This document shows positions 34,669 through 53,177 of a stretch of DNA of 64,000 nt, in pieces. Made by a program: the position numbers and the translations under genes. The stretch's first letter is position 1. Each line of letters begins with the position of its first letter. Source of the DNA: an uncultured Candidatus Saccharibacteria bacterium. Lineage in GTDB: Bacteria > Patescibacteriota > Minisyncoccia > Phycocordibacterales > UBA9973. The stretch lies in assembly GCA_964646765.1 (NCBI GenBank), contig CAZYIA010000004.1, positions 13,887-77,886 on the forward strand. Direction: 5' to 3'. Under the pieces are notes generated by a model. That model saw only the letters and a program-made list of their open reading frames with translations, was not told the origin of the DNA and made no database searches.

Positions 34669-35106
34669 ATGAAAAGCTTGATCGTTGCAGGCCTGCTCAC
34701 CATGGCGGCGGGCCAATATGGCGCAAACGTCGTTTTTGCCCCCGGGTCTTCTGCGGGTGAGCCGATGAATGCGGGTCCCAGGGTAGCGGAGACGCGGCTG
34801 GAGCTGACCGGTGCAGAGCATCGATCCGCTGCGGCAAATCTGGCAATTGGTCAGGACATCGAGCGCGCGAGCACGCATTTCGAGGACGCCTTCGGCAAAG
34901 CCCCCCAGGTCGCAACAGCAATGGCCTACTCAGTCCAGGCGCACGGGCCCATCAAGGCGATTCTGTACGATGATCCCTCAGTGAAATCAGCGACAACCGG
35001 GTTTGCCGAATCATTGGGGCGTGGCCTGCGCGCACTGGCGGACGCCGTGGCACGGGACATGGCTGAAGGGACCAAGCAGTTGCATCCACAACCGGTCCAG
35101 GGCTAG
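34669..35106 (+). CDS. Secreted hypothetical protein
   Basis: The start was refined to the MKSLIVAGLLTMAAGQYGA signal peptide, with a GGAGAA RBS. The gene is 145 aa and convergent with the rhs gene. Confidence 0.45.
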   Translation: MKSLIVAGLLTMAAGQYGANVVFAPGSSAGEPMNAGPRVAETRLELTGAEHRSAAANLAIGQDIERASTHFEDAFGKAPQVATAMAYSVQAHGPIKAILYDDPSVKSATTGFAESLGRGLRALADAVARDMAEGTKQLHPQPVQG

Positions 35107-38100
35107 GCCGGCGTATTGCCGGCAGCATCCAGCACTACCGCACCAGGTGGCTCAGTCGCCATGCGGTTCGACGCCGGGGTGTAGCTGTAGGGCCCGGTCG
35201 AATCGATCAACCGGTTCCCGTTGCAGTCGTACGAAAGCAACTGCGTCGACTCGGAGATCAGACGATCCAGCGCGTCGTACTGGAACTGGCTTGCGTCCTT
35301 CTGAACGACGTTGCCGTTGGCGTCATAGGCGAAGGTCCGGTTCAACACGAATCCGGCCGTCCAGCCTGTCATCCGGCCCTGCAGGTCGTAGGTCTTCGAC
35401 TCGGTGATGCCATTGGCCCAGGTCTGGGCCTTGACCAGGCCGTCGGCGCGGTAGGTTCTGCCGGTGAGGACGTTGCTGCCGTTGGTCGAAACCGCGGTGA
35501 CGTTGCCGATGGCGTTGCGGGTATAGGCCACGATCCGGCCAGAGGGATAGGTGATGCTGGCGAGGTCGCCGGCTGGCGTCCAGGTGTAGGACGTGGTCTT
35601 GCTCACGCCACCTTGAACCCAAGTCTCGGATGAAACCCGGCCGAACCCTTCATAGATCCAGCTGCGCGTCCCCGCCTGATCCGTCACACTGCAAAGCTGG
35701 CCAACCTGGCAGGTATCGTAGGTCATGGCCACGTTCTCGGCCGGGTTCGGGTAGGAAACCGAGGTCACCCGGTTCAGGACGTCATAGGTGAACGTGGCGG
35801 CGATCCCGCGAGCGTCGGTCCGGGTCAACACGTTCCCGTTGGCGTCATGTGTGTAGGTGATGACACCGCGATCCGGGCCAGCCTCCTTCAGGACGTTACC
35901 AAGGTCGTCGATCTCATAGCCAGTGGCAGCATCGTTCGGTGTCACAACCCCTGCCAGGTTACCGCCAGGGTCGTAACCCCGATCGGTCATCCCCCCCAGG
36001 GCATCCACCGTACGGACGATACGATCCAGGGTGTCGACCTGATGCTGGGTGATGTTGCCGTTGGGGTCGGTGACCTGGGTGAGATTCCCCACCGCGTCGT
36101 GCACCAGTTGGGTAACCGAGCCGGCGGCATTGACCTGGCTTGGGTAGTTCCGGGCGTTGAAGGCCAGATCCATCTGCCGGACAACGGTGCCATCGGGATC
36201 TTTCGTGACATCCGACGTCCGGTTCCCCTTGAGGTCGTAGGCGTAGCTGACCTTGTTGCCCAGGCTATCGGTGACGCTGGCCAGGCGGTCTGCTACATCG
36301 TAGGTGTAGGTCAGGGTGCCACGGCCGGGGACGATGACCGAGAGCAGCCGGCCGGCGGCGTCCCACGCATAGGAATAGGTGCGCGCGCTGCCCACCACCG
36401 GTGTTTCGGTCACCGACGCAACCCTGCCCCGCAGGTTGTACGTGTACGCGGTGACCAGGCCGTTCGGATCGGTTTTACGGAGCAGGCGGCCGTTGGCGTC
36501 GTACTGGTCGAAGGTGGTGACGTGGCCAGCGGGGTTGGTGATGGAGGAGAGCATCTCGCAGCCGAAACCGGTAGTGCACTGCGGATAGGTAAGCTGGGTG
36601 GTGCGGCCGTTGGCGTCGGTGATCGCGCCAATCTGTCCCGCCGGTGCATAGGCCATCGCTACCGTTCTGGAAACCGCAGTGCCAGCCGGGGTGTAGCCAG
36701 ATACCTGGATTTGCACCGGGCGGTTCCGTTCGTCGTAGGCGATCTCGGTGCGCTTGACTGCGCCACCAAATACGCTCGGCTCTTCGATGACCGTCGGCAG
36801 CGCCAGGAAGTCGTCCAGATAGGCCCAGGTGGTAGTGCGCGCTTCTGGCGTTCCTGCGGCCTCCACCTTCTGGATCGGCCGGTTGACGGCGTCCCAGGCA
36901 TAGGTGGTCGTTCTGCCCTCCTCGTCTGTCTCGGAAATGAGGTTGTTGTTCGCATCGAAGCTCCGGAAACGCGTCTTGCCATCCATGCTATGGGTACGAG
37001 CGGCAAGAAGATTGACTCCGAGGTTGCGTGTGAAGGCGAGCGTTTCGGCATTGCCGGCAGCGTCCGTCACGGTGGCGCCGGCGCCGCTGAAGCCGAGACC
37101 GAAGGATTCCGTGCCGTCCGGCCTGGCAGTCGACACCGCCTGGCCCGTCGCAGCGTCGTAGGCATAGGTGCCAACCCGCTTGCCCGTCTCGTCGATGATG
37201 CCCGTCAGGGCATGAGGGTTGAGAGGATCTTCGTACAGATACCGGCGCACGCTGTTGTCGGGGAAGTAGACCTGCACCAGCCGGCGGCGACTGTCATACT
37301 GGTAGCGAATCCGGTGCCCGTCCGGCTGCCGAATCTCCAAAAGAATGGCGGCTCCCCATACCGGAGTCAGCTTGTGACCACCCGGGCCGAATTCGGCCAT
37401 GATCAGGCCATTTGACACCATGTCATAGCGGGTCCGGATTCCCGACGGACTGAATCGCTCGATGATGTTGCCGGGTGCGTTGTAGCGCTCGATCGAACCG
37501 TCCTGCCATGCACGCCTGTAGCCCAAGCCGTCACGCTTCAGCTTGAAGCGGACGTCGGCCGGGCAGGCGAAGGTGCCGTCGAGGTTGTCAGGGCAATGAA
37601 CGGTACGCCCACTGGATTCCCGGACCTGGACACCGTTGCCGTCGGGGGTGATTCGCACCGAGTAATCGAAGGTCCAGTTGTAGCCCATGTAACCGGAATT
37701 CGTAAAACTCTGGCTGTTGTACGTGCGCGCCATCGAAGACACACCCGGCGGCCCATTGAAATCGACCTCCCTTTGCACCTTGTTGCCTACCGCGGCGTCA
37801 ACCGGGTTGCCATAGCAAGTATCGCCCGCGCCGCTTTCGCCCCCGAGTTGCTTCACATTTTGAGCTGCGAGCACCGCAGACTGTTTCGAGACGACATCGC
37901 CAGAAGTCGGCCCCACCAGCACCATGCCAGGCGACACCGCTTGTGTCGGAAAAACGTGATAGTGGTAGGTAGCCCCGGCCGACAGACCGCAACCCCGGTT
38001 CTGCTCGTTCGACGTCCAGGTCTGGAGGCCAGCACCGGCGCTACCGGTCCAATATGCCCAGCAATTACTGATGTTTTGCGGACAAATCCTTCGCATCGCG

Positions 38101-38234
38101 CCATCTTTCAGGCAGGCAGTGAAGGCTTCTTCCGAGGTGTTGTAGTAGCTGTATAAATTGGCGATCGCCTGCGAGGGACTCAATCCTGTCAGGGCGGCCA
38201 TCGCGGCAAGAACGAAGGCGAGCGGGTGCATCAT
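35103..38234 (-). CDS. Rhs/YD-repeat protein, apparently truncated at the C-terminus (no RHS core PxxxxDPxGL and no toxin tip)
   Basis: It has a signal peptide and more than 25 YD repeats (YTYDANGN, YAYDLKGN, YEIDDLGN, and others) over 1043 aa. It ends ...YSYTPASNRMATEPPGAVVLDAAGNTPA without the conserved RHS core terminus or a downstream immunity gene. Confidence 0.85.
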   Translation of the reverse strand: MMHPLAFVLAAMAALTGLSPSQAIANLYSYYNTSEEAFTACLKDGAMRRICPQNISNCWAYWTGSAGAGLQTWTSNEQNRGCGLSAGATYHYHVFPTQAVSPGMVLVGPTSGDVVSKQSAVLAAQNVKQLGGESGAGDTCYGNPVDAAVGNKVQREVDFNGPPGVSSMARTYNSQSFTNSGYMGYNWTFDYSVRITPDGNGVQVRESSGRTVHCPDNLDGTFACPADVRFKLKRDGLGYRRAWQDGSIERYNAPGNIIERFSPSGIRTRYDMVSNGLIMAEFGPGGHKLTPVWGAAILLEIRQPDGHRIRYQYDSRRRLVQVYFPDNSVRRYLYEDPLNPHALTGIIDETGKRVGTYAYDAATGQAVSTARPDGTESFGLGFSGAGATVTDAAGNAETLAFTRNLGVNLLAARTHSMDGKTRFRSFDANNNLISETDEEGRTTTYAWDAVNRPIQKVEAAGTPEARTTTWAYLDDFLALPTVIEEPSVFGGAVKRTEIAYDERNRPVQIQVSGYTPAGTAVSRTVAMAYAPAGQIGAITDANGRTTQLTYPQCTTGFGCEMLSSITNPAGHVTTFDQYDANGRLLRKTDPNGLVTAYTYNLRGRVASVTETPVVGSARTYSYAWDAAGRLLSVIVPGRGTLTYTYDVADRLASVTDSLGNKVSYAYDLKGNRTSDVTKDPDGTVVRQMDLAFNARNYPSQVNAAGSVTQLVHDAVGNLTQVTDPNGNITQHQVDTLDRIVRTVDALGGMTDRGYDPGGNLAGVVTPNDAATGYEIDDLGNVLKEAGPDRGVITYTHDANGNVLTRTDARGIAATFTYDVLNRVTSVSYPNPAENVAMTYDTCQVGQLCSVTDQAGTRSWIYEGFGRVSSETWVQGGVSKTTSYTWTPAGDLASITYPSGRIVAYTRNAIGNVTAVSTNGSNVLTGRTYRADGLVKAQTWANGITESKTYDLQGRMTGWTAGFVLNRTFAYDANGNVVQKDASQFQYDALDRLISESTQLLSYDCNGNRLIDSTGPYSYTPASNRMATEPPGAVVLDAAGNTPA

Positions 38235-38332
38235 GTGCTTTCGAATCGAAAGCTCCGATGGTAGCGAGGGGCCACTATAAGTTCAGGTGTTTGAGCCGGG
38301 AAAAGGGGCGCGCACCGGGTCAATCCCGGTGA

Positions 38333-41300
38333 TCACGCCGGTCGACCATCCTCCCGCCGCTTTTCCTCAAATCCACGGTAGACCAGATCCAGCAACAGCG
38401 CCGCCATCGCCTTCTTGACGTGGCCCTTGCCCATCACCTGCTCCGACATGTTCTTGTGGTTCTCGTAAGCCGCCATCACGGCGTCCTCGAAGGCGTTCAT
38501 GAAGTCCGGGCTGTCGCCGAACTGGGCTTTCTGGTTGGCCGCCGCCTGCTGGGCCAGAACCTCCGACTCCATCATCTTGCCGGCGATGTGGTTCACGTAG
38601 TTGATGCGGTCCGCGTCCGTCAGCTCTTCGCCCTCAAAGAGATCGTTCATCTTTCCAACGATCTCCGACAGCAGGGCCTGCGCCGGATCCTGCGGCACGC
38701 GGCTGCCGATACCTGTCATCGGGTCGAGTGTGGCCGGCTCGTCGGTGGAATCGCCAAGGCCCAGCTTGCGCTTGCCCAGGTCGCGCAGGTTGTAGTGCGT
38801 CATCAGCACGGCCGACAGGTCAATCGCCTCGTGCCTGACCTCCTCGGCGATGAGCGGGGCGAGGTGCTTGTAGAAGAGGCTGCGCTTGAAGAGATCCGAA
38901 TCGCCGTAGTCGACGATCTGGGAGAGGAAGTCGTAGGCGCGCACGAAGCCGCCCAGGTCCTTTCGGAAGAGATCCAAAGCCTCGATGGCTTTCTTGTCCT
39001 TCTGCTGCTCGGCCTCCGTATAGCGCACACGGAAGCGTTCGACCGCGGGGCCGATCCTGGCCTGCAGGTCCTTCTGGGTGCCTTTCCTGTAATAGGCCTC
39101 GGCAAACCCATCCACCTCCTCCGGCAGGTAGATGCCCGTGGCATCGAGCTTGGCCTGCAGGTCGTGGATCAGGTTGGGATCGGATACGCCGGCGAGCTGC
39201 GCTGTGCGGTAATAGGTGCGGAAGGCAGCCAGGATCTCGTCGGGGTCGTTCACGAAATCGAGCACGAAGGTGTCGGTCTTGCCGGGGTAGATGCGGTTGA
39301 GCCGCGAGAGCGTCTGCACGGCCGAGACGCCGGCGAGCTTCTTGTCGACGTACATCGCCACCAGCAGGGGCTGGTCGAAACCCGTCTGGAACTTGTTGGC
39401 AACCAGCATGACCTGGTACTCGTCGGTGGCAAAGGCCTCGCGCATGTCACGACCCTTGAGGCCGGGGTTCATGTTTGACTCGTTGAATGGGTTCGGGCCG
39501 CTCTCCGGGTCGTTCACGTCGCCGGAGAAGGCCACCAGGGCGGCAACGTCCTTGTAGCCCTGCGTCTTGATGTACTTGTCCATGGCGAGCTTGTAGCGCA
39601 CCGCCTCCTTCCGTGAGGAGGTCACGACCATGGCCTTGGCCCGGCCATTCAGGCGCCACATCACGTTGGCCCGAAAGTGTTCGACGATCACCTGGACCTT
39701 CTGGGCGATGTTGTGCGGGTGCAGGCGCACCCAGTTCATCAGCGACTTCAGGGCCCGGTTCTGGTCGACCTGCTCATCGTCGTAGTCCTGCCCATCGTGC
39801 GCCAGCTTGAAGGCAAGCTTGTAGGGCGTGTAGTTCTTCAGCACGTCGAGGATGAAGCCCTCCTCGATGGCCTGCTGCATGGAATAGACGTGGAACGGCG
39901 CCGGCAAACCGTCCGGGTCGGGCCGCCCGAAAAGTTCGAGCGTCTTGGCCTTGGGCGTGGCGGTGAAGGCGAAGTAGCTGACGGTATCAGGTTGTACCTG
40001 ACCGGCCATCTCTGCTTCAAGGATTTCCTCCAGGTCTACCTCGGCGCCGTCCTCGATCTCCGCCAGCCGCTCGGCGGTCAGCACCTGCTTCAATTTCTTG
40101 GCGGCCGAGCCGGTCTGGGAGGTGTGCGCCTCGTCAGCGATCACGGCGAAGCGCCGGCCCTTGAGGGTGACCGTGTCCCGGATGGCGTCGAGCACGAACG
40201 GGAACGTCTGGATCGTCACGATGATGATGGGTGCGCGGTCGGCCAGCGCCTTCACCAACTGCGATGACTTGGAGCCCCCCTCGTCGGTGATCCTGACCAC
40301 CACGCCATGCTTGTGCTCGAACTGGTAGATCGCGTCCTGCAGCTGGGAGTCCAGCACCGTGCGGTCGGTGATGACGATGACCGAGTCGAAAAGCTTGATG
40401 TCCGCATCGTCATGCAGGGACGCCAGCTGGTGGGAGAGCCACGAGATGGAGTTGGTCTTGCCGGAGCCCGCGGAGTGCTGCACCAGGTACTTCATGCCCG
40501 GGCCTTCCACCCGTGCGGTCGCCACGAGCAATGTGACCGCCTCCCACTGGTGGAAGCGCGGGAAGATCAGGCCCTGCTTCTCGACTACGGTGCCATCGGG
40601 CTGGGTTTCCTGCTTCTTCTCCAGGTGGACGAAGCGGCCGAGGATGTCGAGCCAGGCGTCGCGATCCAGCACGCGCTCCCAGAGATAGGCCGTGCGATAG
40701 CCGTTGGGGTTGGGCGGGTTGCCCTTGCCGCCGTCGTTGCCCAGGTTGAACGGCAGGAAACGGGTCTCCTTGCCAGCGAGCTTCGTCGTCATCCACACCT
40801 CGTCTGTGGACACCGCGAAGTGCACAAGGGAGCGCCGCTTGAAGGCGAGCAGCGGCTCCTCGCGCTTGGTGACGGGATCCTTCACCGGCCGGCCATGCCG
40901 ATACTGGCTGATGGCGTCCTGCACGGACTGGGTGAAATCGGTCTTGAGTTCGAGGGTGGCGACCGGGATGCCGTTCACGAACACCACGAGGTCGATGCTG
41001 TTCTGGTTCGACAGGCAGTAATGCACCTGCCGCATGACACGCACCCGCACCCTGTCGTACCGGGCCAACGTTTCCGGGTTCATCTTCTGCGCCGGCTTGA
41101 ACTGGCACATGTCGAACCGGGCGTTCACGTTCTTGAAACCGTGGCGCAGTACCGAGAGCGAGCCTTCCCTGTCCATGACCTCGGCCAGACGCTTCAGCAC
41201 CGTCTTCTCGCTGGATCCGTTATGCAGCGTCTTCACCTTCGCCCATTCCTTGGGCTGGGTTTCCGACAACCAGGCGATGACGTCCTCCGGAAAGAGCGCC

Positions 41301-41407
41301 AGCTCGCGGTCATAGCCGGTGTCGTCAGGGGAATACAGCCAGCCGTGGGCTGCGAGATGGGCGCACACTTCCTGCTCGAAGTGGATTTCAGTGTGGAGTG
41401 CTGTCAT
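38333..41407 (-). CDS. hsdR: Type I restriction enzyme R subunit HsdR
   Basis: The 1024-aa ORF has an N-terminal nuclease domain and a DEAD/SF2 helicase core (GSGKT, DEAH-like VIADEAHTSQ, QTFPFV). It overlaps the upstream gene by 4 nt. Confidence 0.95.
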   Translation of the reverse strand: MTALHTEIHFEQEVCAHLAAHGWLYSPDDTGYDRELALFPEDVIAWLSETQPKEWAKVKTLHNGSSEKTVLKRLAEVMDREGSLSVLRHGFKNVNARFDMCQFKPAQKMNPETLARYDRVRVRVMRQVHYCLSNQNSIDLVVFVNGIPVATLELKTDFTQSVQDAISQYRHGRPVKDPVTKREEPLLAFKRRSLVHFAVSTDEVWMTTKLAGKETRFLPFNLGNDGGKGNPPNPNGYRTAYLWERVLDRDAWLDILGRFVHLEKKQETQPDGTVVEKQGLIFPRFHQWEAVTLLVATARVEGPGMKYLVQHSAGSGKTNSISWLSHQLASLHDDADIKLFDSVIVITDRTVLDSQLQDAIYQFEHKHGVVVRITDEGGSKSSQLVKALADRAPIIIVTIQTFPFVLDAIRDTVTLKGRRFAVIADEAHTSQTGSAAKKLKQVLTAERLAEIEDGAEVDLEEILEAEMAGQVQPDTVSYFAFTATPKAKTLELFGRPDPDGLPAPFHVYSMQQAIEEGFILDVLKNYTPYKLAFKLAHDGQDYDDEQVDQNRALKSLMNWVRLHPHNIAQKVQVIVEHFRANVMWRLNGRAKAMVVTSSRKEAVRYKLAMDKYIKTQGYKDVAALVAFSGDVNDPESGPNPFNESNMNPGLKGRDMREAFATDEYQVMLVANKFQTGFDQPLLVAMYVDKKLAGVSAVQTLSRLNRIYPGKTDTFVLDFVNDPDEILAAFRTYYRTAQLAGVSDPNLIHDLQAKLDATGIYLPEEVDGFAEAYYRKGTQKDLQARIGPAVERFRVRYTEAEQQKDKKAIEALDLFRKDLGGFVRAYDFLSQIVDYGDSDLFKRSLFYKHLAPLIAEEVRHEAIDLSAVLMTHYNLRDLGKRKLGLGDSTDEPATLDPMTGIGSRVPQDPAQALLSEIVGKMNDLFEGEELTDADRINYVNHIAGKMMESEVLAQQAAANQKAQFGDSPDFMNAFEDAVMAAYENHKNMSEQVMGKGHVKKAMAALLLDLVYRGFEEKRREDGRPA

Positions 41408-41847
41408 TTGCCGCAGGCCCTTCCGCCCTGTAGAGCACGGACGCTTTGCCCCTTCTCTTCCAGTTCGAGATCATCAAACCAAGGTTGCTCTGTGCGCGAC
41501 GAGTGCTTGTTTACCTTGGAAGGCTGAATTTGGCTCAACTGCAAGGAATTCGCTCGTTCAAGTGACTGCCTGTGCTCAGCCCTTTTGAAGGAGACGGCCA
41601 CCCATACGTCCGCCTCCTCATTTGACGGCCTAACTTCAACGCCAAGTTCAGTGAACCAGCCAACCAGGCGCCAGCGCATTTCACTAGGTGCATTCCGCAG
41701 CAATATGTTTGTCTTGTCGAGTTTCGCTCCGCTGCCGTTATAGGCTTGTCTGAAGGCCATCAATGCCAAGGTATGCCAATCGTGCAATGAGGTATGCGGA
41801 AATGTCGCAGTTTTAGCGACCATTTCGGTAAAGATATTTTCACGCAT
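41404..41847 (-). CDS. Hypothetical protein embedded in the Type I RM operon (147 aa)
   Basis: The start was refined to MRENIFTEMVAK with a GGGAGG RBS. It is translationally coupled to hsdR (ATGA-type overlap). No recognisable domain was found. Confidence 0.4.
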   Translation of the reverse strand: MRENIFTEMVAKTATFPHTSLHDWHTLALMAFRQAYNGSGAKLDKTNILLRNAPSEMRWRLVGWFTELGVEVRPSNEEADVWVAVSFKRAEHRQSLERANSLQLSQIQPSKVNKHSSRTEQPWFDDLELEEKGQSVRALQGGRACGK

Positions 41848-41928
41848 CACACCCCTCCCTTTCGTTAACTTTCCCCGCCACCGCCGCTGAGAAAAGCTCC
41901 GTGCTGAGCACATGCATTGTTGTCAACG

Positions 41929-43188
41929 CTACTTCTTGATCCAGGGAGACAAGGCAGCAGCGATTTCATCAGGCTTCGCCTTTTCCAACACCTTCTCCAG
42001 CAATTCATGCATCGGAGAAGCGGCATCGCCGCGTTTTAGAAGCATCTTGGAAGGATTGGCGCCGAACGTCCTGATCGCTGACTCTTGCAGCATCTTCAGG
42101 AGTTCAGGATCGCCGCCCATTTCATCCCGATAACCTGTAAACGCCATCGCTGCCGCTTCCTTGAAGGCATAGTCCTCACTTATTCGAAGCACATGGCCAT
42201 ACTGACGCGCCGCGAACCAGGTAAACCAGATAATTGGACCGGCCACCAGAAAGCGAACCAACACGGCCACGGGATCCGGGCTGCCCGCTTTCAGCAAAGG
42301 CAGTAATTCAGCCCAACCGATCCATACGAGCGCCACAATTCCAACGACGAATGCAACCGCCCAGACTCGCCAGGTCCTTTCCAGCTCTTTTCGCTTGTCG
42401 TGAAAGGAGCGCGCTAGGCCCACTTTGTTCGCATTCTCCAGGAGCCCTGCGATTTCATTGCGCCGGTCTTCGAATTCCTTGAATAAGGCATCCTTCTTGG
42501 CAACTGCAGCATCTAGCTCCTGAATCGCATTTGTGACCGAGGAGGCTTCGGCAGTGGCTGTGGATGCCGCACTCTCAGCATTGGTCTTTGCCGTGCCAGC
42601 TTCACGTTCATACCCCTCGATGGTAGTGAGGAGAGACTGGATAGCCTGTACCTTTTCGTTTGCCGTGTTTTGTTGTCCTTCGATCTGTTCGATCAAGTCT
42701 GCTGCGCTCGTCTCCGTCTGCTGGATAACATCCTTGATTTCTCCAGCACGAGAAATCCATTCCTGAGCCTCATTGATCCGGGCGGTCATGGTACGGCTGA
42801 ATTCGGGCGAAAGTCTTTCGGACTCAGGGTGAATCGGCAGCAGCTGGAGCAAGGCGCTTTTTAGCGACCAGAGCCAACTGCAAATGCTCGCAACATTACT
42901 GACGATTTGGCTGGGGTTACTCCAATGAGCGCTGAAAAACTGGTGTATGGCGTTTGGCACCGACTCGAAAGTGTTTCTGTACTGGCTCCAGACAACGCCA
43001 TCGATGTCTTCCGAACGACTAAGCGCCCCCATCAGGACGATTACTTCGTCGAAGGATTTTGTGATATCCGACACGTCCACCCCCAGCCCCTGGATATCCT
43101 CTTGCGGGGTCAGGTTGGGGGCTGCCTGATCCCAGAACCTTTTGGAACCCTCGACCTGGCTGATAGCGCTGGACAAATTGATGCTCAT
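41929..43188 (-). CDS. Coiled-coil protein with a 2-TM hairpin, embedded between hsdS and hsdR (candidate defence or abortive-infection effector)
   Basis: The 419-aa ORF has an N-terminal globular region and a long coiled-coil (AQEWISRAGEIKDVIQQTETSAADLIEQIEGQQNTANEKVQAIQ...). Two adjacent TM helices follow (WRVWAVAFVVGIVALVWIGW / VAVLVRFLVAGPIIWFTWFAARQY), then a short C-terminal domain. It sits 18 bp from the hsdS stop and 16 bp from the next ORF. Confidence 0.5.
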   Translation of the reverse strand: MSINLSSAISQVEGSKRFWDQAAPNLTPQEDIQGLGVDVSDITKSFDEVIVLMGALSRSEDIDGVVWSQYRNTFESVPNAIHQFFSAHWSNPSQIVSNVASICSWLWSLKSALLQLLPIHPESERLSPEFSRTMTARINEAQEWISRAGEIKDVIQQTETSAADLIEQIEGQQNTANEKVQAIQSLLTTIEGYEREAGTAKTNAESAASTATAEASSVTNAIQELDAAVAKKDALFKEFEDRRNEIAGLLENANKVGLARSFHDKRKELERTWRVWAVAFVVGIVALVWIGWAELLPLLKAGSPDPVAVLVRFLVAGPIIWFTWFAARQYGHVLRISEDYAFKEAAAMAFTGYRDEMGGDPELLKMLQESAIRTFGANPSKMLLKRGDAASPMHELLEKVLEKAKPDEIAAALSPWIKK

Positions 43189-43206
43189 ATCTCCCCCTGT
43201 TGTTTT

Positions 43207-44523
43207 TTATGCAGCGGCCTGATGTTGTGTCCGTACATCAATTTTTCCCGTGACCGCCGCTGAAATCAGCGCCGTGCGGTGCTCACGCATCAGGTCAATG
43301 GAGCGGCGGGATTTTTCGATTAGGGTATCGAGCTTGGCGGTTTCGCGGTCGATAAATGCAACGATGGCAGATTGTTCTTCTGATGGCGGACTCGTCATTA
43401 GGATGTTAGCTACATCATCTAGGCTCAACTGGATCTTTGTCCCACCATAGCCTTGTGCCTCGAGGTAGGTCTTCCCAACGAATGAGAGCGTCACGTAAGC
43501 AACCCAAGGCGACAGAAAGTACCTTCCTGCTAAGCGGGCCAGTGCAACGTGTTGGCTCACATATGCAGCTTCCATATTGTCAGGGACAACTGCTACTGAA
43601 CCTAGATAAGCGGTGATAGAAAACAGAACATCCCCAGGCAAGACTCTTGTCCTTTCTCCTTCCGTTCCTTCAGGAACCTCCACTCTTTGAATGTCTGCTA
43701 AATCAAGCTGAATAGTTTCACGGGTCAGGTTACCAATACGGATGAACAACGCACCATCATCTGCGTAGTGGTCAGCCCAGCCTCGTGAACCACTTGTCAG
43801 GAACAGCAAATCACGCTTGAGAGGTAAAACGCCCCAATGCGCTGGCACCCCCCCCAACCACTCCACCCCCGAATCCTTCATCGGAGCATCCGGATTCAAC
43901 CCCTTGGTCACCGCATGGGAGATGAGGGCCTGGCGCTTTTCCTGAAGCAGTTCGATCAGCTTTTCCTGCTTGGCGATCAGGGTGTCAAGCCTGGTGGTTT
44001 CGCGGTCGAGGAAGGTGGCGATGGCGGCCTGTTCTTCTGGATCAGGAAGTGAGAGTGAGATGTTTCGCATCTCCGAGTAGTTGGTGCTCCAAAGGTCGGC
44101 AACGATTCCTTTTCCGTATCGATAGAACTCTTCCTGGAACGGATAGCTTCGTAGCAGATGGTGAGCAAATCGCCCATTGATAGAGTCGTATGGCTGGAGA
44201 ACAGTATTGATTAGTGAAGCCGAACCATCCAACTCAGAGAGGCCAGATGAGCCTTTTCGGTCCGACCGGCTGTTGATGACAAAATCGCCAGAGCGAACCA
44301 ACTTCCGGTTGTCTCCATCATCCGTTTTTGCGGCCGTTTCAAGTTGTGGAACGACCCCGCTTTTGGTGACGGAAAGGGGCTGATAGTCCTTGTCACTGAC
44401 CTTCTCGCGGCGCTCGGAGAAGTAGTAGCCAAGCCGCTTCACGTCCCAATGCTCCGGCACCTCCCCGAGCCACTCCACCCCGGAGTCCTTGCAGGCCGGG
44501 TAGGGGCGATACTTAACGCTCAT
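43207..44523 (-). CDS. hsdS: Type I restriction-modification specificity subunit HsdS
   Basis: It has two target-recognition domains separated by conserved repeats (LDTLIAKQEKLIELLQEKRQALISHAVTKGL and LDTLIEKSRRSIDLMREHRTALISAAVTGKI). Confidence 0.9.
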   Translation of the reverse strand: MSVKYRPYPACKDSGVEWLGEVPEHWDVKRLGYYFSERREKVSDKDYQPLSVTKSGVVPQLETAAKTDDGDNRKLVRSGDFVINSRSDRKGSSGLSELDGSASLINTVLQPYDSINGRFAHHLLRSYPFQEEFYRYGKGIVADLWSTNYSEMRNISLSLPDPEEQAAIATFLDRETTRLDTLIAKQEKLIELLQEKRQALISHAVTKGLNPDAPMKDSGVEWLGGVPAHWGVLPLKRDLLFLTSGSRGWADHYADDGALFIRIGNLTRETIQLDLADIQRVEVPEGTEGERTRVLPGDVLFSITAYLGSVAVVPDNMEAAYVSQHVALARLAGRYFLSPWVAYVTLSFVGKTYLEAQGYGGTKIQLSLDDVANILMTSPPSEEQSAIVAFIDRETAKLDTLIEKSRRSIDLMREHRTALISAAVTGKIDVRTQHQAAA

Positions 44524-44783
44524 CGTCCTTTCCCCGAAAACGCTGAACCCGGCAGCACGTTGTATGGATTTTCTTCACGATATTCGGCCGGCTTGGCACC
44601 TACTGCATTCGCACTGGCCACCTTCAAACAGGCATCGCACAGTTTCACCAGCCCAAAGTTTGTTTCCGCTTGGTATAGCGGCTCTTGTGCAGAACAACGG
44701 GTACAAACGCCTGCGCCTATGGATGTAACGACTTTGCTCTCAAGGCGTATCTTTGCCGGTTTGCGCGTCGTGTTGGATGTCAC
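44520..44783 (-). CDS. Small CxxC...CxxC zinc-ribbon protein between hsdM and hsdS
   Basis: The 87-aa ORF contains CTRC...CDAC. It overlaps the hsdM stop and the hsdS start by 4 nt each (translational coupling). Confidence 0.4.
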
Positions 44784-46510
44784 GCCACCACCTCTTGCAG
44801 CAGGCCCATGATCTCGGTGGTCAGCGCTTTCAGATCGGAATCAATCTCCTCCAGCGGCCTCGGCGGCACGTACTTGTAGAAGTGCCGGTTGAAGGGGATT
44901 TCGTAGCCCACCTTGGTCTTGCCGTGATCGATCCAGGCATCCGGCACATGGGGCAGGACCTCGCACTCGAAGTAGGCCTGGATGTCGTCCTTCAGGGGCA
45001 CGTTCTCGGTGTCGCGCAGCGATGAGTCGGGTTGGGGCTGGCCTTTCTGCTTGCCCTTGGTGCCGATGACGACGTTGCCCTGCTCGTCGCGCAGGGGACG
45101 CTCGACGGTGATGGTGGAATAGCCGAAATCGGCGTTGTCGAATATCTTGCTGTGCTCGTTCTCTTCGAACGCGCCGTAGAGCTTCACGATGCGCTCGATG
45201 TCGGCGTCGCCCAGTTCCTTGCGCTTGGAGCCCAGGGACTTCCGCATCTTCTGGTAGAACTCGGCGGCATTGATGAGCTGGATCTTGCCCTGGCGCTCAG
45301 GCTTCTTGTGGTTGGTGACGATCCAGACGTAGGTCGAGATGCCGGTGTTGTAGAACATGTCGGTCGGCAGGGCGACGATGGTCTCCAGCCAGTCGTTCTC
45401 GATGATCCATTTGCGGATCTCCGACTCGCCCGACCCCGCGCCGCCGGTGAAAAGCGGCGAGCCGTTCAACACGATACCGATGCGGCTGCCGCCTTCGGCC
45501 TTCGGCCGCATCTTCGAGATGAGATGCAACAGGAACAGCAGACTGCCGTCGGACACACGCGGCAGACCGGGGCCGAAGCGCCCCTCGTAGCCCTTTTTCG
45601 TGTACTCGTCACGGATGAATTTCTCGATCTTCTTCCATTCCACGCCGAACGGCGGGTTGCTCAGACTGTAGTCGAAGAGCTTGCCGATGAGGCCGTCTTC
45701 GGAGAGCGTGTTGCCGTAGCGGATGTTGGAGATGTCCTGGCCCTTGATGAGCATGTCCGCCTTGCAGATGGCGTAGGACTCGGGGTTCATCTCCTGCCCG
45801 AACACTACCAGGCGGGCCTGGGGGTTGAGGCGTTGCAGGTGTTCCTCGGCCACCGACAGCATGCCGCCGGTGCCGGCGGTGGGATCGTACAGCGTGCGCA
45901 CCACGCCTGGCTGGGTCAATGCCTCGTCATCGCCGGCGAACAGAAGCTCCACCATCAGGCGGATGACCTCACGCGGAGTGAAGTGCTCCCCCGCCGTCTC
46001 GTTCGAGAGCTCGGCAAACTTGCGGATCAGCTCCTCGAACATGGCGCCCATGTGGGCGTTGCTCACCACGTTGGGATGCAGATCGATCGCCGCAAACTTG
46101 CCGGCCACCATGAACAACAGGTTGTCCTGGTCAAGCCGGTCAATGATGGCCTGAAAGTTGAACCGCTCGAACACGTCGCGGACGTTGTCCGAGAACGAGC
46201 CAATGTAGTTCGTGAGGTTGGCGCGGACATTGGACGGATCGCCCAATGCTGCAGCGAACGTCATCGGCGAGGTGTTGTAGAACTGGTAGCCGGATTTCTT
46301 GATCAGAAAACGATCCAGAGCCGCTTCAGGCAGGTCCTTCTTCGCCTGGTACTCCTTCAGCACCGCCGGCTTCGTCGCCTCCAGCACGCAGTCCAGCCGC
46401 CTCAGAACGGTGAACGGCAGGATCACACGGCCGTACTCGGATTGTTTGAAGTTGCCCCTGAGCAGGTCGGCAACCGACCAGATCAGGGATGAAGTTGCGT
46501 TTGTGTTCAT
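44780..46510 (-). CDS. hsdM: Type I restriction-modification N6-adenine DNA methyltransferase HsdM
   Basis: It has an N-terminal HsdM_N domain, a SAM-binding motif and the catalytic NPPFG motif. Confidence 0.95.
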
Positions 46511-46860: not shown

Positions 46861-47214
46861 TCATCCTCTCGCCACCAGGACAACTCCGAGCATGATCATC
46901 CCCACCCCACCCCAGCGCATTATCGACACTGGTTCATGGAGGATCCAGGCACTTGCCACGGTTGTCGCGACGAAACCAAGCGCGATGAAGGGATAGGCGA
47001 AGGAAAGCTCTGCCCGTGACAGCGCCACGATCCAGAGTCCGAGTGCTGAAACATGGAGAGTCCCGCCGAGCCAGATCCACCCGTTGCCGAGTGCTGCCGC
47101 CAGCATGCCCTGTCCGATCGCATGGCCGGCCAGGGCATTGGCTCCGAGTTTCAGGACGAAGTGTGCGAGGGAGGAACAGGCCACGCTCGCCAGGATGATA
47201 AGAATGACCGGCAT
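46861..47214 (-). CDS. Small 4-TM transporter of the DMT/SMR superfamily (EamA/ArnE-like)
   Basis: The 117-aa ORF has four hydrophobic helices and an LSRAELSFAYPF motif. Confidence 0.55.
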   Translation of the reverse strand: MPVILIILASVACSSLAHFVLKLGANALAGHAIGQGMLAAALGNGWIWLGGTLHVSALGLWIVALSRAELSFAYPFIALGFVATTVASAWILHEPVSIMRWGGVGMIMLGVVLVARG

Positions 47215-47480
47215 CAGAGAAGCACCTCGATCACTTTCGCCACCTTCTTGCGCATCTTGCCCTCGGTGATACCCGCCTCATCCAGCAGGACGGGGAGCAG
47301 TTCTTCACGCATGATCTTCACGACAACCTCCGGTGTTGATCGTGCGCCATGCTCCCATTCCCACAGCCGCGAAGCCGTGTAGGCCTTGCCCGTGCGCATG
47401 CTCAGATACCGTGCCGACGCCGCCCTGCTTTCCTTGTGCCGAATGGTCCGAAAATCGAGCCAGGCCGAGACCAGGCGCAT
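47214..47480 (-). CDS. Hypothetical protein
   Basis: The 88-aa ORF is in operonic arrangement with its neighbours on the minus strand. There are no motifs. Confidence 0.3.
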   Translation of the reverse strand: MRLVSAWLDFRTIRHKESRAASARYLSMRTGKAYTASRLWEWEHGARSTPEVVVKIMREELLPVLLDEAGITEGKMRKKVAKVIEVLL

Positions 47481-47496: not shown

Positions 47497-47682
47497 TTAA
47501 TGGATGTGAGCCGACCCTGAAACAAGGAAATTGCCCCGATGCAGCAACTGGGCATTCGTCGCTTCCTGTGTTTCACGCAGATGTTCGGCGTAAAGACGCA
47601 TCAGGCGCAGCTGCACCTCATCCATTTCCTTGACCGTGTGGTACAGCGCATCCATCTCGTTCTTGTGATTCATTTTGGCCAT
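47497..47682 (-). CDS. Small hypothetical protein (61 aa)
   Basis: The start was refined to MAKMNHKNEMDALYH. The ATG lies 2 nt after the stop of the upstream RNase H-like gene. Confidence 0.3.
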   Translation of the reverse strand: MAKMNHKNEMDALYHTVKEMDEVQLRLMRLYAEHLRETQEATNAQLLHRGNFLVSGSAHIH

Positions 47683-47684
47683 GA

Positions 47685-48281
47685 TTACCAACCTTTCTTC
47701 AAAAAAGCAGCCGGGACATTTCCCCAAGCCGGGTTCCACTGCAGGATCGGGTTTCGCCACATATTTGCGGCGAGCCATTTCTCGGCCCGATCAACCAGGT
47801 TTGTGGTCTCCTGGTTCGCAGCGGTCCTGGCCAGTGCGGCGCCGCATTTGCGACGACGTATCCAGGCGAGCGCTTCTTGCGAATCACTATAGACCGGGAC
47901 CTCCAGACCGCGCCTGACGCAAAGCGCCAAGGCATGGCACACGGCCAGGAAGTCCCCGATTTCCTGCGTTCCTTCGGGGAGCGGACCGACCCGGAAAATT
48001 TCTCGTCCGGTCGACGTCACTACCCCTCGATACTCCAGCGTTCCGGAAAACCCGGAACATGAAGCCCCCACAGAATAGGAGAACAGAGTAGGCTGCGTCT
48101 CGCCGCGTGGATCAAGAGAATCCAAGGCACGACCGGCTCCGTATGAAGCCAACGCGAGGTTCTCATCCTGGAAGGACTTGAACCGGGCGCCACTGTAGCC
48201 CTTCACCTGGCTTTCGCATTCCTTCCAGGAGCGATAAATTCCCGGAGTCCTGCCTGCCCAGACAACATAGAATGCCACCAC
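47685..48281 (-). CDS. RNase H-like protein with N-terminal RNA/DNA hybrid-binding domain (possibly catalytically degenerate)
   Basis: The N-terminus FYVVWAGRTPGIYRSWKECESQVKGYSGARFKSFQDENLALASY matches the HBD/Cauli_VI motif. The C-terminus has RNase H-like motifs (VYSDSQEALAWI, TAANQ...LVDRAEKWL). The first catalytic DG is replaced (YSVGASCSG). Confidence 0.5.
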   Translation of the reverse strand: MVAFYVVWAGRTPGIYRSWKECESQVKGYSGARFKSFQDENLALASYGAGRALDSLDPRGETQPTLFSYSVGASCSGFSGTLEYRGVVTSTGREIFRVGPLPEGTQEIGDFLAVCHALALCVRRGLEVPVYSDSQEALAWIRRRKCGAALARTAANQETTNLVDRAEKWLAANMWRNPILQWNPAWGNVPAAFLKKGW

Positions 48282-52289: not shown

Positions 52290-53177
52290 CTACCCCGCGC
52301 CCTGCGTCTGCGATTCGTTCGCGGCAGGGCTTTTCTTCTTTTTTGCCCCCGATGCCTTTAACAGCAACCAGTCCATTCCGGACACCGGAAGGATGCGCCT
52401 CGCCCACCAGAACAACTTTGCCGGAACCGTCACCCGGTACCGTGCGCGAGGCCTGCGCGACTCCAGCGCATGGATGACACAGTCGACCACGGCGGATGCC
52501 GGCAGTGTAAACGGGACCGCCGCGCCCTCCTTCCTGAGCCGCTCCAGCTGCACCTCGTACACTGCGCGGTACACGCTGGCATCCATGTCGATGTGGCGCA
52601 GGAATGGCGCCACGCAGTTCGCCCGGAAGCGGGTCTCGATCGGGCCGGGTTCGATCAAACTCACCGCGATTTCCGTTCCGGCGAGCTCCAAGCGTAATTG
52701 GTCAACAAGTCCTTCCATGGCGAACTTCGACGCAACATAGGCGCCACGGTACGGCAGCGCCGCATATCCCAGCACAGAACTGTTCCACACGATCCTGCCG
52801 TGACCCTGCCGGCGCATGACGGGGATCACCAGGTTCGTGAGCTCGACCGCCCCGAAGAGGTTGGCGTCGAACTGCTCGTGCAGCGCTTCGCGTGTGAGAT
52901 CCTCGACGGCGCCGACCATTCCGAAGCCGGCGTTGTTGAAAAGAGCGTCAAGCGTACCGCCGGTACGCTCCAGCACCTCGGCCACCGCACAGCGGATGCT
53001 CTCGCTGTCCGCCACATCGAGCTGCAGCGTCTCGAACGAGGCGTGCACCAGCTCGTTGACGTCTCTCCTGGAGCGGGCCGTGGCGAACACGCGCCACCCC
53101 CGGGTGGCCAGTGTCGAGGCCGTCTCAAGCCCGATGCCTGAGCTGCAGCCGGTGATCAGGATACTTCGTTTTACCAA
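52290..53177 (-). CDS. Short-chain dehydrogenase/reductase (SDR family)
   Basis: It has a TGCSSGIG Rossmann motif, NNAG, and the YxxxK catalytic motif (YVASKFAMEG). The C-terminal 35-aa extension runs into a repeated terminator-like element. Confidence 0.85.
   Translation of the reverse strand: MVKRSILITGCSSGIGLETASTLATRGWRVFATARSRRDVNELVHASFETLQLDVADSESIRCAVAEVLERTGGTLDALFNNAGFGMVGAVEDLTREALHEQFDANLFGAVELTNLVIPVMRRQGHGRIVWNSSVLGYAALPYRGAYVASKFAMEGLVDQLRLELAGTEIAVSLIEPGPIETRFRANCVAPFLRHIDMDASVYRAVYEVQLERLRKEGAAVPFTLPASAVVDCVIHALESRRPRARYRVTVPAKLFWWARRILPVSGMDWLLLKASGAKKKKSPAANESQTQGAG
52296..52345. repeat. Repeated terminator-like element (copy 1 of 2; inverted copy 2 at about 60484-60523)
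   Basis: The sequence is CCCTGCGTCTGCGATTCGTTCGCGGCAGGGCTTTTCTTCTTTTTT, a stem CCCTGC...GCAGGG plus a T-run. A near-identical copy in inverted orientation (CCCTGCGTCTGCGACTCGTTCGCGGCAGGGTTTTTCTTTGC) lies between the convergent genes at 60460/60564. Confidence 0.55.

Follow-up and report, generated by a model that had tools for sequence, protein, structure and literature searches.

Genes for phage defence that lie inside Type I restriction–modification (RM) operons, at the junction of hsdS and hsdR, are an established concept (10.1101/2024.01.29.577857; PMC12255303; PMC11411939). Most genes embedded in such operons are defence genes or candidates for that role, the hsdS–hsdR interval being a recognized hotspot (10.1101/2024.01.29.577857; PMC12255303), and 96.7% of embedded genes are co-oriented with their host system (Payne et al. 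2024, 10.1101/2024.01.29.577857). DarTG2, which sits between hsdS and hsdR in the RRDM island of enteropathogenic Escherichia coli (EPEC), is a validated system of this kind (PMC12255303). TgvAB and PrrC are validated examples too. Here we describe a Type I RM operon in a stretch of 64,000 nucleotides, called the window below, from an uncultured Candidatus Saccharibacteria bacterium (contig CAZYIA010000004.1, positions 13,887 to 77,886 of the forward strand). Between hsdS and hsdR it carries p419, a gene for a coiled-coil protein of 419 amino acids (aa) with two transmembrane (TM) helices. We regard p419 as a credible defence candidate, on the grounds of guilt by embedding: RM-embedded defence cargo is already known as a concept, and what is new here is a large protein family for which no name, model or described homologue exists. 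We see in p419 a strong candidate and a solid lead rather than a demonstrated new mechanism.

Six co-directional open reading frames (ORFs) on the minus strand fill positions 46510 to 38333 of the window:

44780–46510, minus strand: hsdM, Type I methyltransferase subunit, 576 aa (Pfam, PADLOC)
44520–44783, minus strand: orf87, open frame of 87 codons with a GTG start and a CxxC-x18-CxxC pattern; gene status unverified
43207–44523, minus strand: hsdS, specificity subunit with two target-recognition domains, 438 aa (PADLOC, Pfam)
41929–43188, minus strand: p419, two-TM coiled-coil protein, 419 aa, candidate defence gene and member of a conserved family
41848–41928, minus strand: spacer of 81 nt between p419 and p147, with a weak hairpin and the Shine-Dalgarno sequence GGGAGGGG before the ATG of p147
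41404–41847, minus strand: p147, lineage-restricted small gene in the slot before hsdR, 147 aa, isoelectric point 8.9, no TM segment
38333–41407, minus strand: hsdR, restriction/translocase subunit, 1024 aa (Pfam, NCBIfam)

The position of p419 recurs. Among family members at least 42% identical to p419 and with enough flanking sequence, the p419-type gene lies in the interval from hsdS to hsdR, and in the same orientation as these genes, in 11 diverged Type I operons, whose HsdM and HsdR are 46–92% and 37–94% identical, respectively, to those of the window. Conservation of this neighbourhood had been named as a check in a preliminary description of the locus, and it is borne out by these operons (percentages are identities to p419):

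Window: extra ORFs orf87 and p147
L007 (metagenomic operon; HsdM 91% and HsdR 93% identical to the window): p419 88%; p147 also present
L061/62: p419 79%; small unrelated ORF before hsdR
L010 (Thiobacillus): p419 73%; small unrelated ORF before hsdR
L063/64: p419 61%; cargo DUF3846 and DUF1016/YhcG
L065–67: p419 59%; cargo GmrSD
L068: p419 56%; cargo DUF1016/YhcG and SEC-C
L012: p419 51%; cargo Phd/PIN
L014 (Acidiphilium): p419 51%; cargo GmrSD
L072/73: p419 50%; RloC-type AAA_13 gene 3' of hsdR, then an integrase
L074: p419 about 42%; three small ORFs before hsdR

The p419-type protein is often better conserved than its flanks, as in L063 (61%, against 42% for HsdR and 46% for HsdM). Two further members (L015 and L024, 47–51% identity) have one common context that lies outside the count of 11, and in a Nitrospirota locus (L033, 26% identity) the order is hsdM–Schlafen/AlbA_2–p419–hsdS. 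Of the cargo in these operons, GmrSD (L014, L065), DUF1016/YhcG (L063, L068), Phd/PIN (L012), Schlafen/AlbA_2 (L033) and RloC-type AAA_13 (L072) are known from defence. p419 has the traits by which Payne et al. 2024 recognized embedded genes, since it is nested, lies on the same strand, carries no mobilome or housekeeping annotation and recurs in 10 further operons; of the HEC and PDC models which PADLOC-DB v2 adopted from that work, none matches it. Both p419 and p147 are protein-coding and constrained, as indicated by ratios of nonsynonymous to synonymous substitution rates (dN/dS, with L007 as reference) of 0.10 and 0.14, next to 0.08 for hsdM and 0.085 for hsdR.

The family to which p419 belongs is large. 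A word-indexed search returned 92 homologue clusters of 385–441 aa, without any Pfam domain, and when 1.84 billion representatives (clusters at 50% identity) were searched exhaustively with a HMMER profile, there were 3,724 clusters at E ≤ 1e-3, 2,166 at E ≤ 1e-10 and 352 at E ≤ 1e-30. Distant members align over the C-terminal two-thirds only; ten of them were scanned and showed no Pfam domain, save sub-threshold coiled-coil-type hits in one. Family loci come from Beta-, Gamma-, Alpha- and Deltaproteobacteria, Acidobacteria, Nitrospirota, Verrucomicrobia, Bacteroidota, Ignavibacteria and Planctomycetes. The C-terminal module, which we define by GLAxSF, two TM helices, WFxWFxxRQxG, EDYxFK, GYRxE and SP and which is present in p419, was also found on plasmids of Vibrio, Xanthomonas, Campylobacter, Klebsiella and Agrobacterium, and in one temperate Providencia phage. 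The only significant library matches of p419 are to two PHROGs families, phrog_30912 (E 4.6e-16, residues 169–399) and phrog_34659 (E 3.1e-14, residues 33–398), of 426–433 positions and both without annotation; the superfamily is therefore carried by phages and prophages. The exact p419 motifs occur in only two IMG/VR contigs, and the close family is mainly chromosomal and RM-embedded.

Library scans agree with the preliminary description that the three inserts (orf87, p419 and p147) fit no named family and are not of the PrrC or RloC kind. All three lack a Walker A motif, and none matches AAA_13 (Pfam, E ≤ 0.1). The PADLOC run that had been suggested gave no significant model match to any of them, sequence searches of the PDB with all three returned nothing, and a fold search with p419 was uninformative. 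Homology to transposases or housekeeping genes, which according to the same description would speak against a defence role, was found for none of the inserts. In Pfam and NCBIfam, p419 had no match beyond coiled-coil noise, and in PADLOC-DB v2.0.0 it hit only LmuB, JetC, PDC-S37 and PDC-S06, through its coiled-coil region (E 1.9e-4 to 0.1, at most 19 bits); three distant relatives (L058, L059 and L060) had no PADLOC match. SLATT was absent from all Pfam hits of p419 at E ≤ 1, from the 25 most frequently matched of 103 families in 21 members (E ≤ 1), and from 13 distant members at E ≤ 0.001–0.01.

We derived the layout of p419 from an alignment of 21 sequences and an AlphaFold2 (AF2) model, which is all-helical (pLDDT, the score of the predicted local distance difference test, is 76):

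42829–43188, minus strand: residues 1–120, N-terminal four-helix bundle (AF2)
42379–42807, minus strand: residues 128–270, long coiled-coil helix with the conserved motif E-R-E-A-x-T-A-K-T-N-A-E (AF2, alignment)
42208–42366, minus strand: residues 275–327, TM helices at about 275–293 and 307–327 joined by a 13-residue loop (hydropathy, alignment)
42109–42207, minus strand: residues 328–360, cytoplasmic juxtamembrane helix, RQYGHxLRxxEDYAFKEAAAxAFxGYRxEM, the most conserved segment of the superfamily

The N-terminal bundle (helices 6–25, 39–58, 64–88 and 99–116, pLDDT 72–95) is presumed to serve in the cytoplasm as a domain for sensing or interaction. In distant relatives from plasmids and phages the alignment starts only at about residue 222, and other sequence takes the place of the bundle. 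The model has a single helix at residues 128–300 that runs into the first hydrophobic segment; in its coiled-coil part, N203 and A204 are nearly invariant, and database similarities are to generic coiled coils only. Kyte–Doolittle windows exceed 1.5 at residues 271–284 and 305–309. The long coiled coil and two-TM hairpin which the preliminary description had read from the sequence are thus both seen. Lysine and arginine residues cluster before TM1 (K265, R266, K267, R271 and R274) and after TM2 (R328 and R335), so that by the positive-inside rule, the basis for inferring topology, p419 is predicted to be an N-in/C-in hairpin whose two large domains lie in the cytoplasm. The TM region has the invariant residues F280, P318, W321, W324 and F325; E338, D339, Y340, F342, K343, A345, A347, F350, G352, Y353 and D360 are invariant in the juxtamembrane helix, whose strongly conserved motif reads WFTWFAARQYG…EDYAFKE…GYR.

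Based on its genomic context, we propose that p419 is an autonomous, single-gene phage-defence protein of the abortive-infection type, a proposal whose chances we judge to be about even. p419 would insert in the inner membrane via the two-helix hairpin, with both ends cytoplasmic, and oligomerise through its coiled coil of approximately 140 residues. The N-terminal helical bundle would sense a phage-derived cue, upon which the hairpin and the juxtamembrane helix (WFxWF…RQxG…EDYxFK…GYR) would rearrange, and the membrane would be permeabilised or depolarised, which would stop the infection. Since p419 sits in the operon, it would be co-transcribed with hsdR, and a second layer of defence would be expressed alongside restriction; p147 is a small optional passenger on its own, in another variable slot. 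This reading is the best supported, by a C-terminal module that stays constant while the N-terminus varies, by recurrent embedding beside known defence cargo, and by a relative in a P2 hotspot. The inserts had been put forward together as an undescribed defence module, for which a single autonomous gene is the better description, since full-length p419 homologues stand alone outside RM operons.

The P2 relative, WP_001583354.1 (463 aa, 'hypothetical protein'), has the C-terminal module of p419 (hhalign probability 99%, E 3.5e-18, signature motifs kept), and is the sole gene between the replication endonuclease gpA/DinI and the portal gpQ in a P2-like prophage of E. coli CP61_Sichuan. Its loci in our set are:

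L071:5001–6392: WP_001583354.1 gene, E. coli NZ_CP053730.1, 2296303–2297694
L058:5221–6612: WP_001583354.1 gene

The protein is present at an identity of at least 99% in 13 of 5,426 complete E. coli genomes, and also in one Klebsiella record; in one genome (H26) the gene is interrupted by the insertion sequence IS1. The gpA–gpQ interval is an anti-phage hotspot that holds old and tin in P2, and TM effectors have been described there (Rousset et al., PMC9122126). In a 2026 follow-up, many unknown genes of P4 and P2 hotspots were predicted to be antiviral, and 6 of 8 randomly chosen P4 loci with only unknown genes gave phage protection (PMC13586616). A literature search for WP_001583354 found no mention of it in the papers covered.

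Relatives of p419 occur in other contexts outside Type I operons, and these too have a defence-like or mobile-element-like character. In L013 and L055 (46–47% identity) the p419-type gene is flanked by a Type ISP restriction enzyme on one side and HEC-01A/B on the other (PADLOC 6e-156 and 2e-55 beside the L055 gene). The L055 cluster is a compact defence island (L055:2992–11062), composed of a 1,636-aa Type ISP enzyme, the p419-type gene and HEC-01A/B on an element with a Phage_AlpA regulator; the same cluster is seen in L013, L056 and L057. In L011 (58%) the gene directly follows that of a 797-aa AAA_13 protein. AAA_13 proteins of the RloC/PrrC type (797–877 aa) recur as neighbours, directly upstream of the p419-type gene in L011 (611–3004) and directly downstream of hsdR in L072 (7105–9738) and L073 (6319–8952), which may mean that these two kinds of RM-linked cargo tend to occur together. 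Below approximately 40% identity the p419-type gene is a solitary passenger, located right after the integrase in an integrative conjugative element with a TrwC relaxase, on a RepC/AAA_25 element, or beside DUF3800. Defence-model matches among the neighbours of distant members are Type I M/S, mad3/mad5, PDC-S01/S06/S59, PD-Lambda-1 and AbiEi; no SMODS, TIR or SLOG neighbour was present in the annotated contexts, nor among the 25 most frequent of 104 neighbour Pfam families. We note that in a Crenothrix metagenome-assembled genome (L052:2636–6106) the large subunit of ribonucleotide reductase is interrupted by a LAGLIDADG intein, and that this gene adjoins a small island with DUF3800, an HI1420-type antitoxin-like gene and a p419-family gene.

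Several observations weigh against an autonomous defence protein. The predicted template modelling score (pTM) of the AF2 model is only 0.34, and the C-terminal 60 residues are of low confidence. p419 is not homologous to any defence protein or effector that has been validated, the PDB gives no informative fold match, and no SLATT or other Pfam match was obtained among the family members scanned. In a batch Pfam scan, the 121 nearest neighbours of distant members were mostly housekeeping genes; for most of the superfamily the defence-island signal thus seems modest, and a conserved partner for the family was rejected, as none recurs among these neighbours. HEC-01, one of the neighbours, gave no defence in the assays of Payne et al. 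(10.1101/2024.01.29.577857). Finally, p419 might instead have a part in restriction as such, given how tightly the close clade is linked to hsdR.

The main rival, which we consider unlikely, is a guard of the PrrC kind. In the RM-embedded clade, p419 would be held inactive by the Type I complex (HsdR or HsdM2S), until phage anti-restriction proteins (Ocr, ArdA or Stp-like) disable the enzyme and free p419, which would kill the cell via the membrane; a membrane effector would thus stand in place of the anticodon nuclease of the prr locus. Such a guard fits the placement of the p419-type gene, invariably just upstream of hsdR with gaps of 5–35 nt or overlaps, down to HsdR identities of approximately 40%, as well as its conservation in distant operons, which equals or exceeds that of HsdR and HsdM, and the recurrence of RloC/PrrC-type AAA_13 genes beside it. 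PrrC also offers a precedent, being described as a latent suicide effector embedded in an RM locus (PMC3874168; 10.1101/2024.01.29.577857). However, full-length homologues that include the N-terminal domain occur without RM genes nearby, so that the family has no obligate RM partner, and one close member adjoins a Type ISP enzyme, which belongs to a different class. A broader scheme that joins the two ideas, and which we hold to be doubtful, is that the superfamily of more than 2,000 clusters may consist of self-contained sensor–effector membrane defence proteins with exchangeable N-terminal sensors, of which the RM-embedded clade would act as the Type I guard, a PrrC analogue that fires on anti-restriction.

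The composition of the operon bears on a further explanation. Its host genes form a complete, ordinary Type I RM system with canonical HsdM, HsdS and HsdR, all three of which had been recognized before and are confirmed by Pfam, PADLOC and NCBIfam. HsdM matches HsdM_N (1.7e-25) and N6_Mtase (1.9e-59) in Pfam and MTase_I in PADLOC (1.5e-276). HsdS matches Specificity_I (PADLOC, 2.8e-146, residues 5–435) and, in two stretches, Methylase_S (Pfam), and its halves form an internal repeat (tblastn). HsdR matches HSDR_N (7e-13), SWI2_SNF2 (1.3e-20), ResIII, DEAD and T1R_D3-like in Pfam, REase_I in PADLOC (1.2e-31) and an hsdR subfamily in NCBIfam (2.9e-45, under the curated cut-off of that model). 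The GC content at third codon positions (GC3) is 0.87 for hsdM and 0.88 for hsdR, compared to 0.50–0.62 in the central block of orf87, hsdS (0.58), p419 and p147 (41404–44783). When the window is compared to L007, L010 and L061, HsdM is 91–92% and HsdR 93–94% identical, HsdS 38–63%, p419 73–88%, and p147 79% or absent. Since the flanks stay at 91–94% while the centre diverges, the hsdS-to-hsdR interval is an exchange hotspot in a conserved frame. The operon is a compositional mosaic whose central block was exchanged by recombination, and the interval behaves as a set of nested exchangeable slots (hsdS, p419 and a small ORF) inside the hsdM/hsdR frame. This agrees with the published view of the hsdS–hsdR site as a hotspot at which defence systems recombine (PMC12255303).

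An integrative conjugative region, or one that is variable in some other way, probably contains or adjoins the operon; the window has neither a tRNA gene nor a tRNA integration site. Other genes around it are:

28165–30093, plus strand: TraG/TraD-type coupling protein
35103–38234, minus strand: RHS-repeat/DUF6531 protein, 1,043 aa, immediately downstream of hsdR (intergenic 38235–38332)
47214–47480, minus strand: small ORF upstream of the operon, 88 aa, no Pfam match
47497–47778, minus strand: small ORF upstream of the operon, 93 aa, no Pfam match
47685–48281, minus strand: protein with an RNase H1 N-terminal (Cauli_VI) domain
53171–55174, minus strand: DEAD/Helicase_C protein with weak similarity to Schlafen-group-3 helicases

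Three different Type I operons with a p419-type gene have a transposase gene of the ISL3 family that overlaps hsdR at its 3' end (L063:11522–12826, L066:5056–6360 and L074:8917–10209), so that ISL3 elements are recurrently associated with this type of operon.

The foreign composition of the central block would also suit a passenger with no part in defence, a possibility that we rate as improbable. p419 would then be a membrane protein that is selfish or belongs to a mobile element (such as an addiction toxin, a factor by which conjugative elements exclude entry or superinfection, or a stress protein) brought in by the recombination-prone hsdS–hsdR interval. The frequent association of family members with integrases and with ISL3, Tn7-like, RepC and TrwC elements, the many housekeeping neighbours of distant members, and the proximity of the operon to the coupling protein gene are all consistent with it. 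Nevertheless, the same slot recurs in 11 diverged operons, p419 is under strong purifying selection, and a relative with the C-terminal module lies in a dedicated anti-phage hotspot of P2; in addition, superinfection exclusion would itself be defence.

An accessory role in restriction, in which p419 is not a suicide effector but tethers the Type I enzyme to the inner membrane or regulates it there, for instance by placing it at sites of DNA entry or by modulating restriction alleviation, strikes us as quite unlikely. The tight and persistent p419–hsdR linkage and the predicted N-in/C-in topology, with large cytoplasmic domains open to protein binding, are compatible with such a role, and there is recent precedent for membrane-localised nucleolytic defence at the injection site (PMC13190303). 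On the other hand, most Type I systems lack p419, some members are found alone on integrative elements, the relative that is the sole gene in the P2 hotspot, and that has only the C-terminal module in common with p419, has no restriction enzyme beside it, and the most conserved part of p419 is the membrane hairpin motif, not a putative docking domain.

The junctions of the operon and its two smaller inserts were also analyzed. Overlaps of 4 nt join hsdM to orf87 (GTGA), orf87 to hsdS (ATGA) and p147 to hsdR (ATGA), and p419 follows hsdS after 18 nt with a strong Shine-Dalgarno sequence, GGGGGAG. The gaps or overlaps of 4–18 nt reported in the preliminary description therefore hold at four junctions, but not between p419 and p147, which are 81 nt apart. 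Translational coupling of three inserted genes, also claimed there, does not stand, given this spacing and given that orf87 is not demonstrable as a gene. The hairpin in the spacer (41912–41900) is one of 11 terminator-like sites where 7.9 are expected, which is not significant, and the spacer can be aligned with L007 and not with L010. Promoter- or terminator-like signals inside the operon do not exceed chance, so that a single transcription unit is compatible with the data.

orf87 occupies a lineage-specific segment of 257 nt between hsdM and hsdS; L007, L010 and L061 lack it, and in them hsdM and hsdS overlap directly. Searches of 5.8 billion protein clusters (among which even orf87 itself is missing), PLSDB plasmids and JGI metagenome contigs gave no homologue, and Pfam, NCBIfam, PADLOC and PHROGs gave no match. 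Gene callers passed it over on contigs identical to the window, and its GC by codon position (0.57/0.51/0.50) has no coding signature, unlike that of its neighbours. In favour of a gene are the plausible zinc ribbon CxxC-x18-CxxC, the start/stop overlaps at both ends and the low chance of a stop-free frame, approximately 1.5% per frame by shuffling; one antisense frame, however, is open too. Nothing suggests that orf87 derives from hsdS, although no comparison aimed at hsdS sequences was made. orf87 is probably not a functional part of the operon; of the CxxC miniprotein reported earlier, the cysteine pattern is present and the gene is unverified.

p147 is known from only two protein clusters, in the two lineages of the window and L007, both with p419. 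It has no match in Pfam, NCBIfam, PADLOC or PHROGs, and no further relatives in plasmids and metagenomes. A longer reading of 169 aa (from 41913, leaving a gap of 15 nt) was rejected, as it contains stop codons in the 79%-identical L007 and is not used by gene callers. The slot between the p419-type gene and hsdR is filled by other ORFs in several operons:

L010:11261–11747: slot ORF
L061:8393–8746: slot ORF
L062:8459–8746: slot ORF
L074:4623–5733: three small ORFs of 204, 125 and 41 aa

In L010 and L061 the slot holds an unrelated ORF of 95–127 aa without a Pfam match, the two copies sharing 88% identity. A degenerate or divergent p147 in L010 was considered and rejected, since the spacer is not alignable and encodes the ORF common to L061. 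L012, L014, L063, L065 and L072 have nothing in the slot, and p147 is absent from all stand-alone members of the p419 family. As the content of the slot varies or is missing, p147 is an optional passenger in a second variable slot and not a conserved partner of p419, and the suggestion that the 147-aa ORF might be the partner of the 419-aa protein was not upheld.

A single multi-component defence system made of orf87, p419 and p147 is highly improbable and is largely refuted by these comparative data: although all three share one strand and operon with short junctions, p147 accompanies p419 in both of the lineages that have it, and orf87 has a four-cysteine zinc-ribbon motif and overlaps at both ends, orf87 is missing from L007, which has p419 and p147, and has no homologue anywhere searched, while p147 is missing from L010 and L061 (p419 73–79%), which carry an unrelated ORF instead, and from all other operons and stand-alone members.

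Should p419 prove to be a defence protein, the prokaryotic immune repertoire would gain a new and widespread family of single genes, with thousands of clusters in many phyla and on plasmids and prophages, which current annotation tools miss entirely. With p419 fixed just before hsdR, the idea that restriction is backed by latent suicide effectors that sense anti-restriction becomes testable in a setting other than a nuclease; to our knowledge, PrrC has so far been almost the only worked example of such an effector. The relative from the E. coli P2 prophage, WP_001583354.1, offers a tractable experimental entry.

Among described systems, PrrC (E. coli prr locus, Type Ic RM) and RloC are similar to p419 in that a gene foreign to RM is nested on the same strand in a Type I operon; latent suicide effectors that are co-expressed with restriction have their classic precedent in PrrC, and in L011 and L072 AAA_13 genes of the RloC/PrrC type lie in the physical neighbourhood of p419-family genes. 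Unlike them, p419 is an integral membrane coiled-coil protein with no ABC-ATPase/AAA_13 domain, Walker A motif or nuclease domain, and its family is widely found outside RM operons, too. Embedding in a Type I operon is common to p419 and PrrC, and is insufficient for membership in the PrrC/RloC group. DarTG2 (EPEC RRDM island), TgvAB (Vibrio cholerae island VPI-2) and the GmrSD/BrxU-like HEC-05/06 (Payne et al. 2024) occupy the same hsdS–hsdR slot in the same direction, and GmrSD, DUF1016 and PIN genes are co-resident with the p419-type gene in sister operons. These systems differ in being enzymatic (ADP-ribosyltransferase, Type IV nucleases) and experimentally validated, whereas p419 is a candidate only. 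phrog_30912 and phrog_34659 are of similar length to p419 and moderately similar to it.

Abortive-infection effectors with two TM helices include SLATT-domain proteins, the two-TM effectors of CBASS, Pycsar and retron systems, and RexB, and p419 bears a resemblance to those of the SLATT, CBASS and RexB kinds. With these effectors it shares a short TM hairpin and cytoplasmic termini, with membrane permeabilisation as the presumed outcome, and the presence of a relative in the P2 gpA–gpQ hotspot recalls the TM proteins of Rst systems in P2 and P4 hotspots. In contrast to SLATT- and CBASS-type effectors, p419 matches no SLATT or other Pfam or PADLOC model and has no associated enzyme that generates a signal (cyclase, TIR or reverse transcriptase); its own N-terminal domain and coiled coil, of approximately 270 residues, suggest that sensor and effector are combined in one polypeptide.

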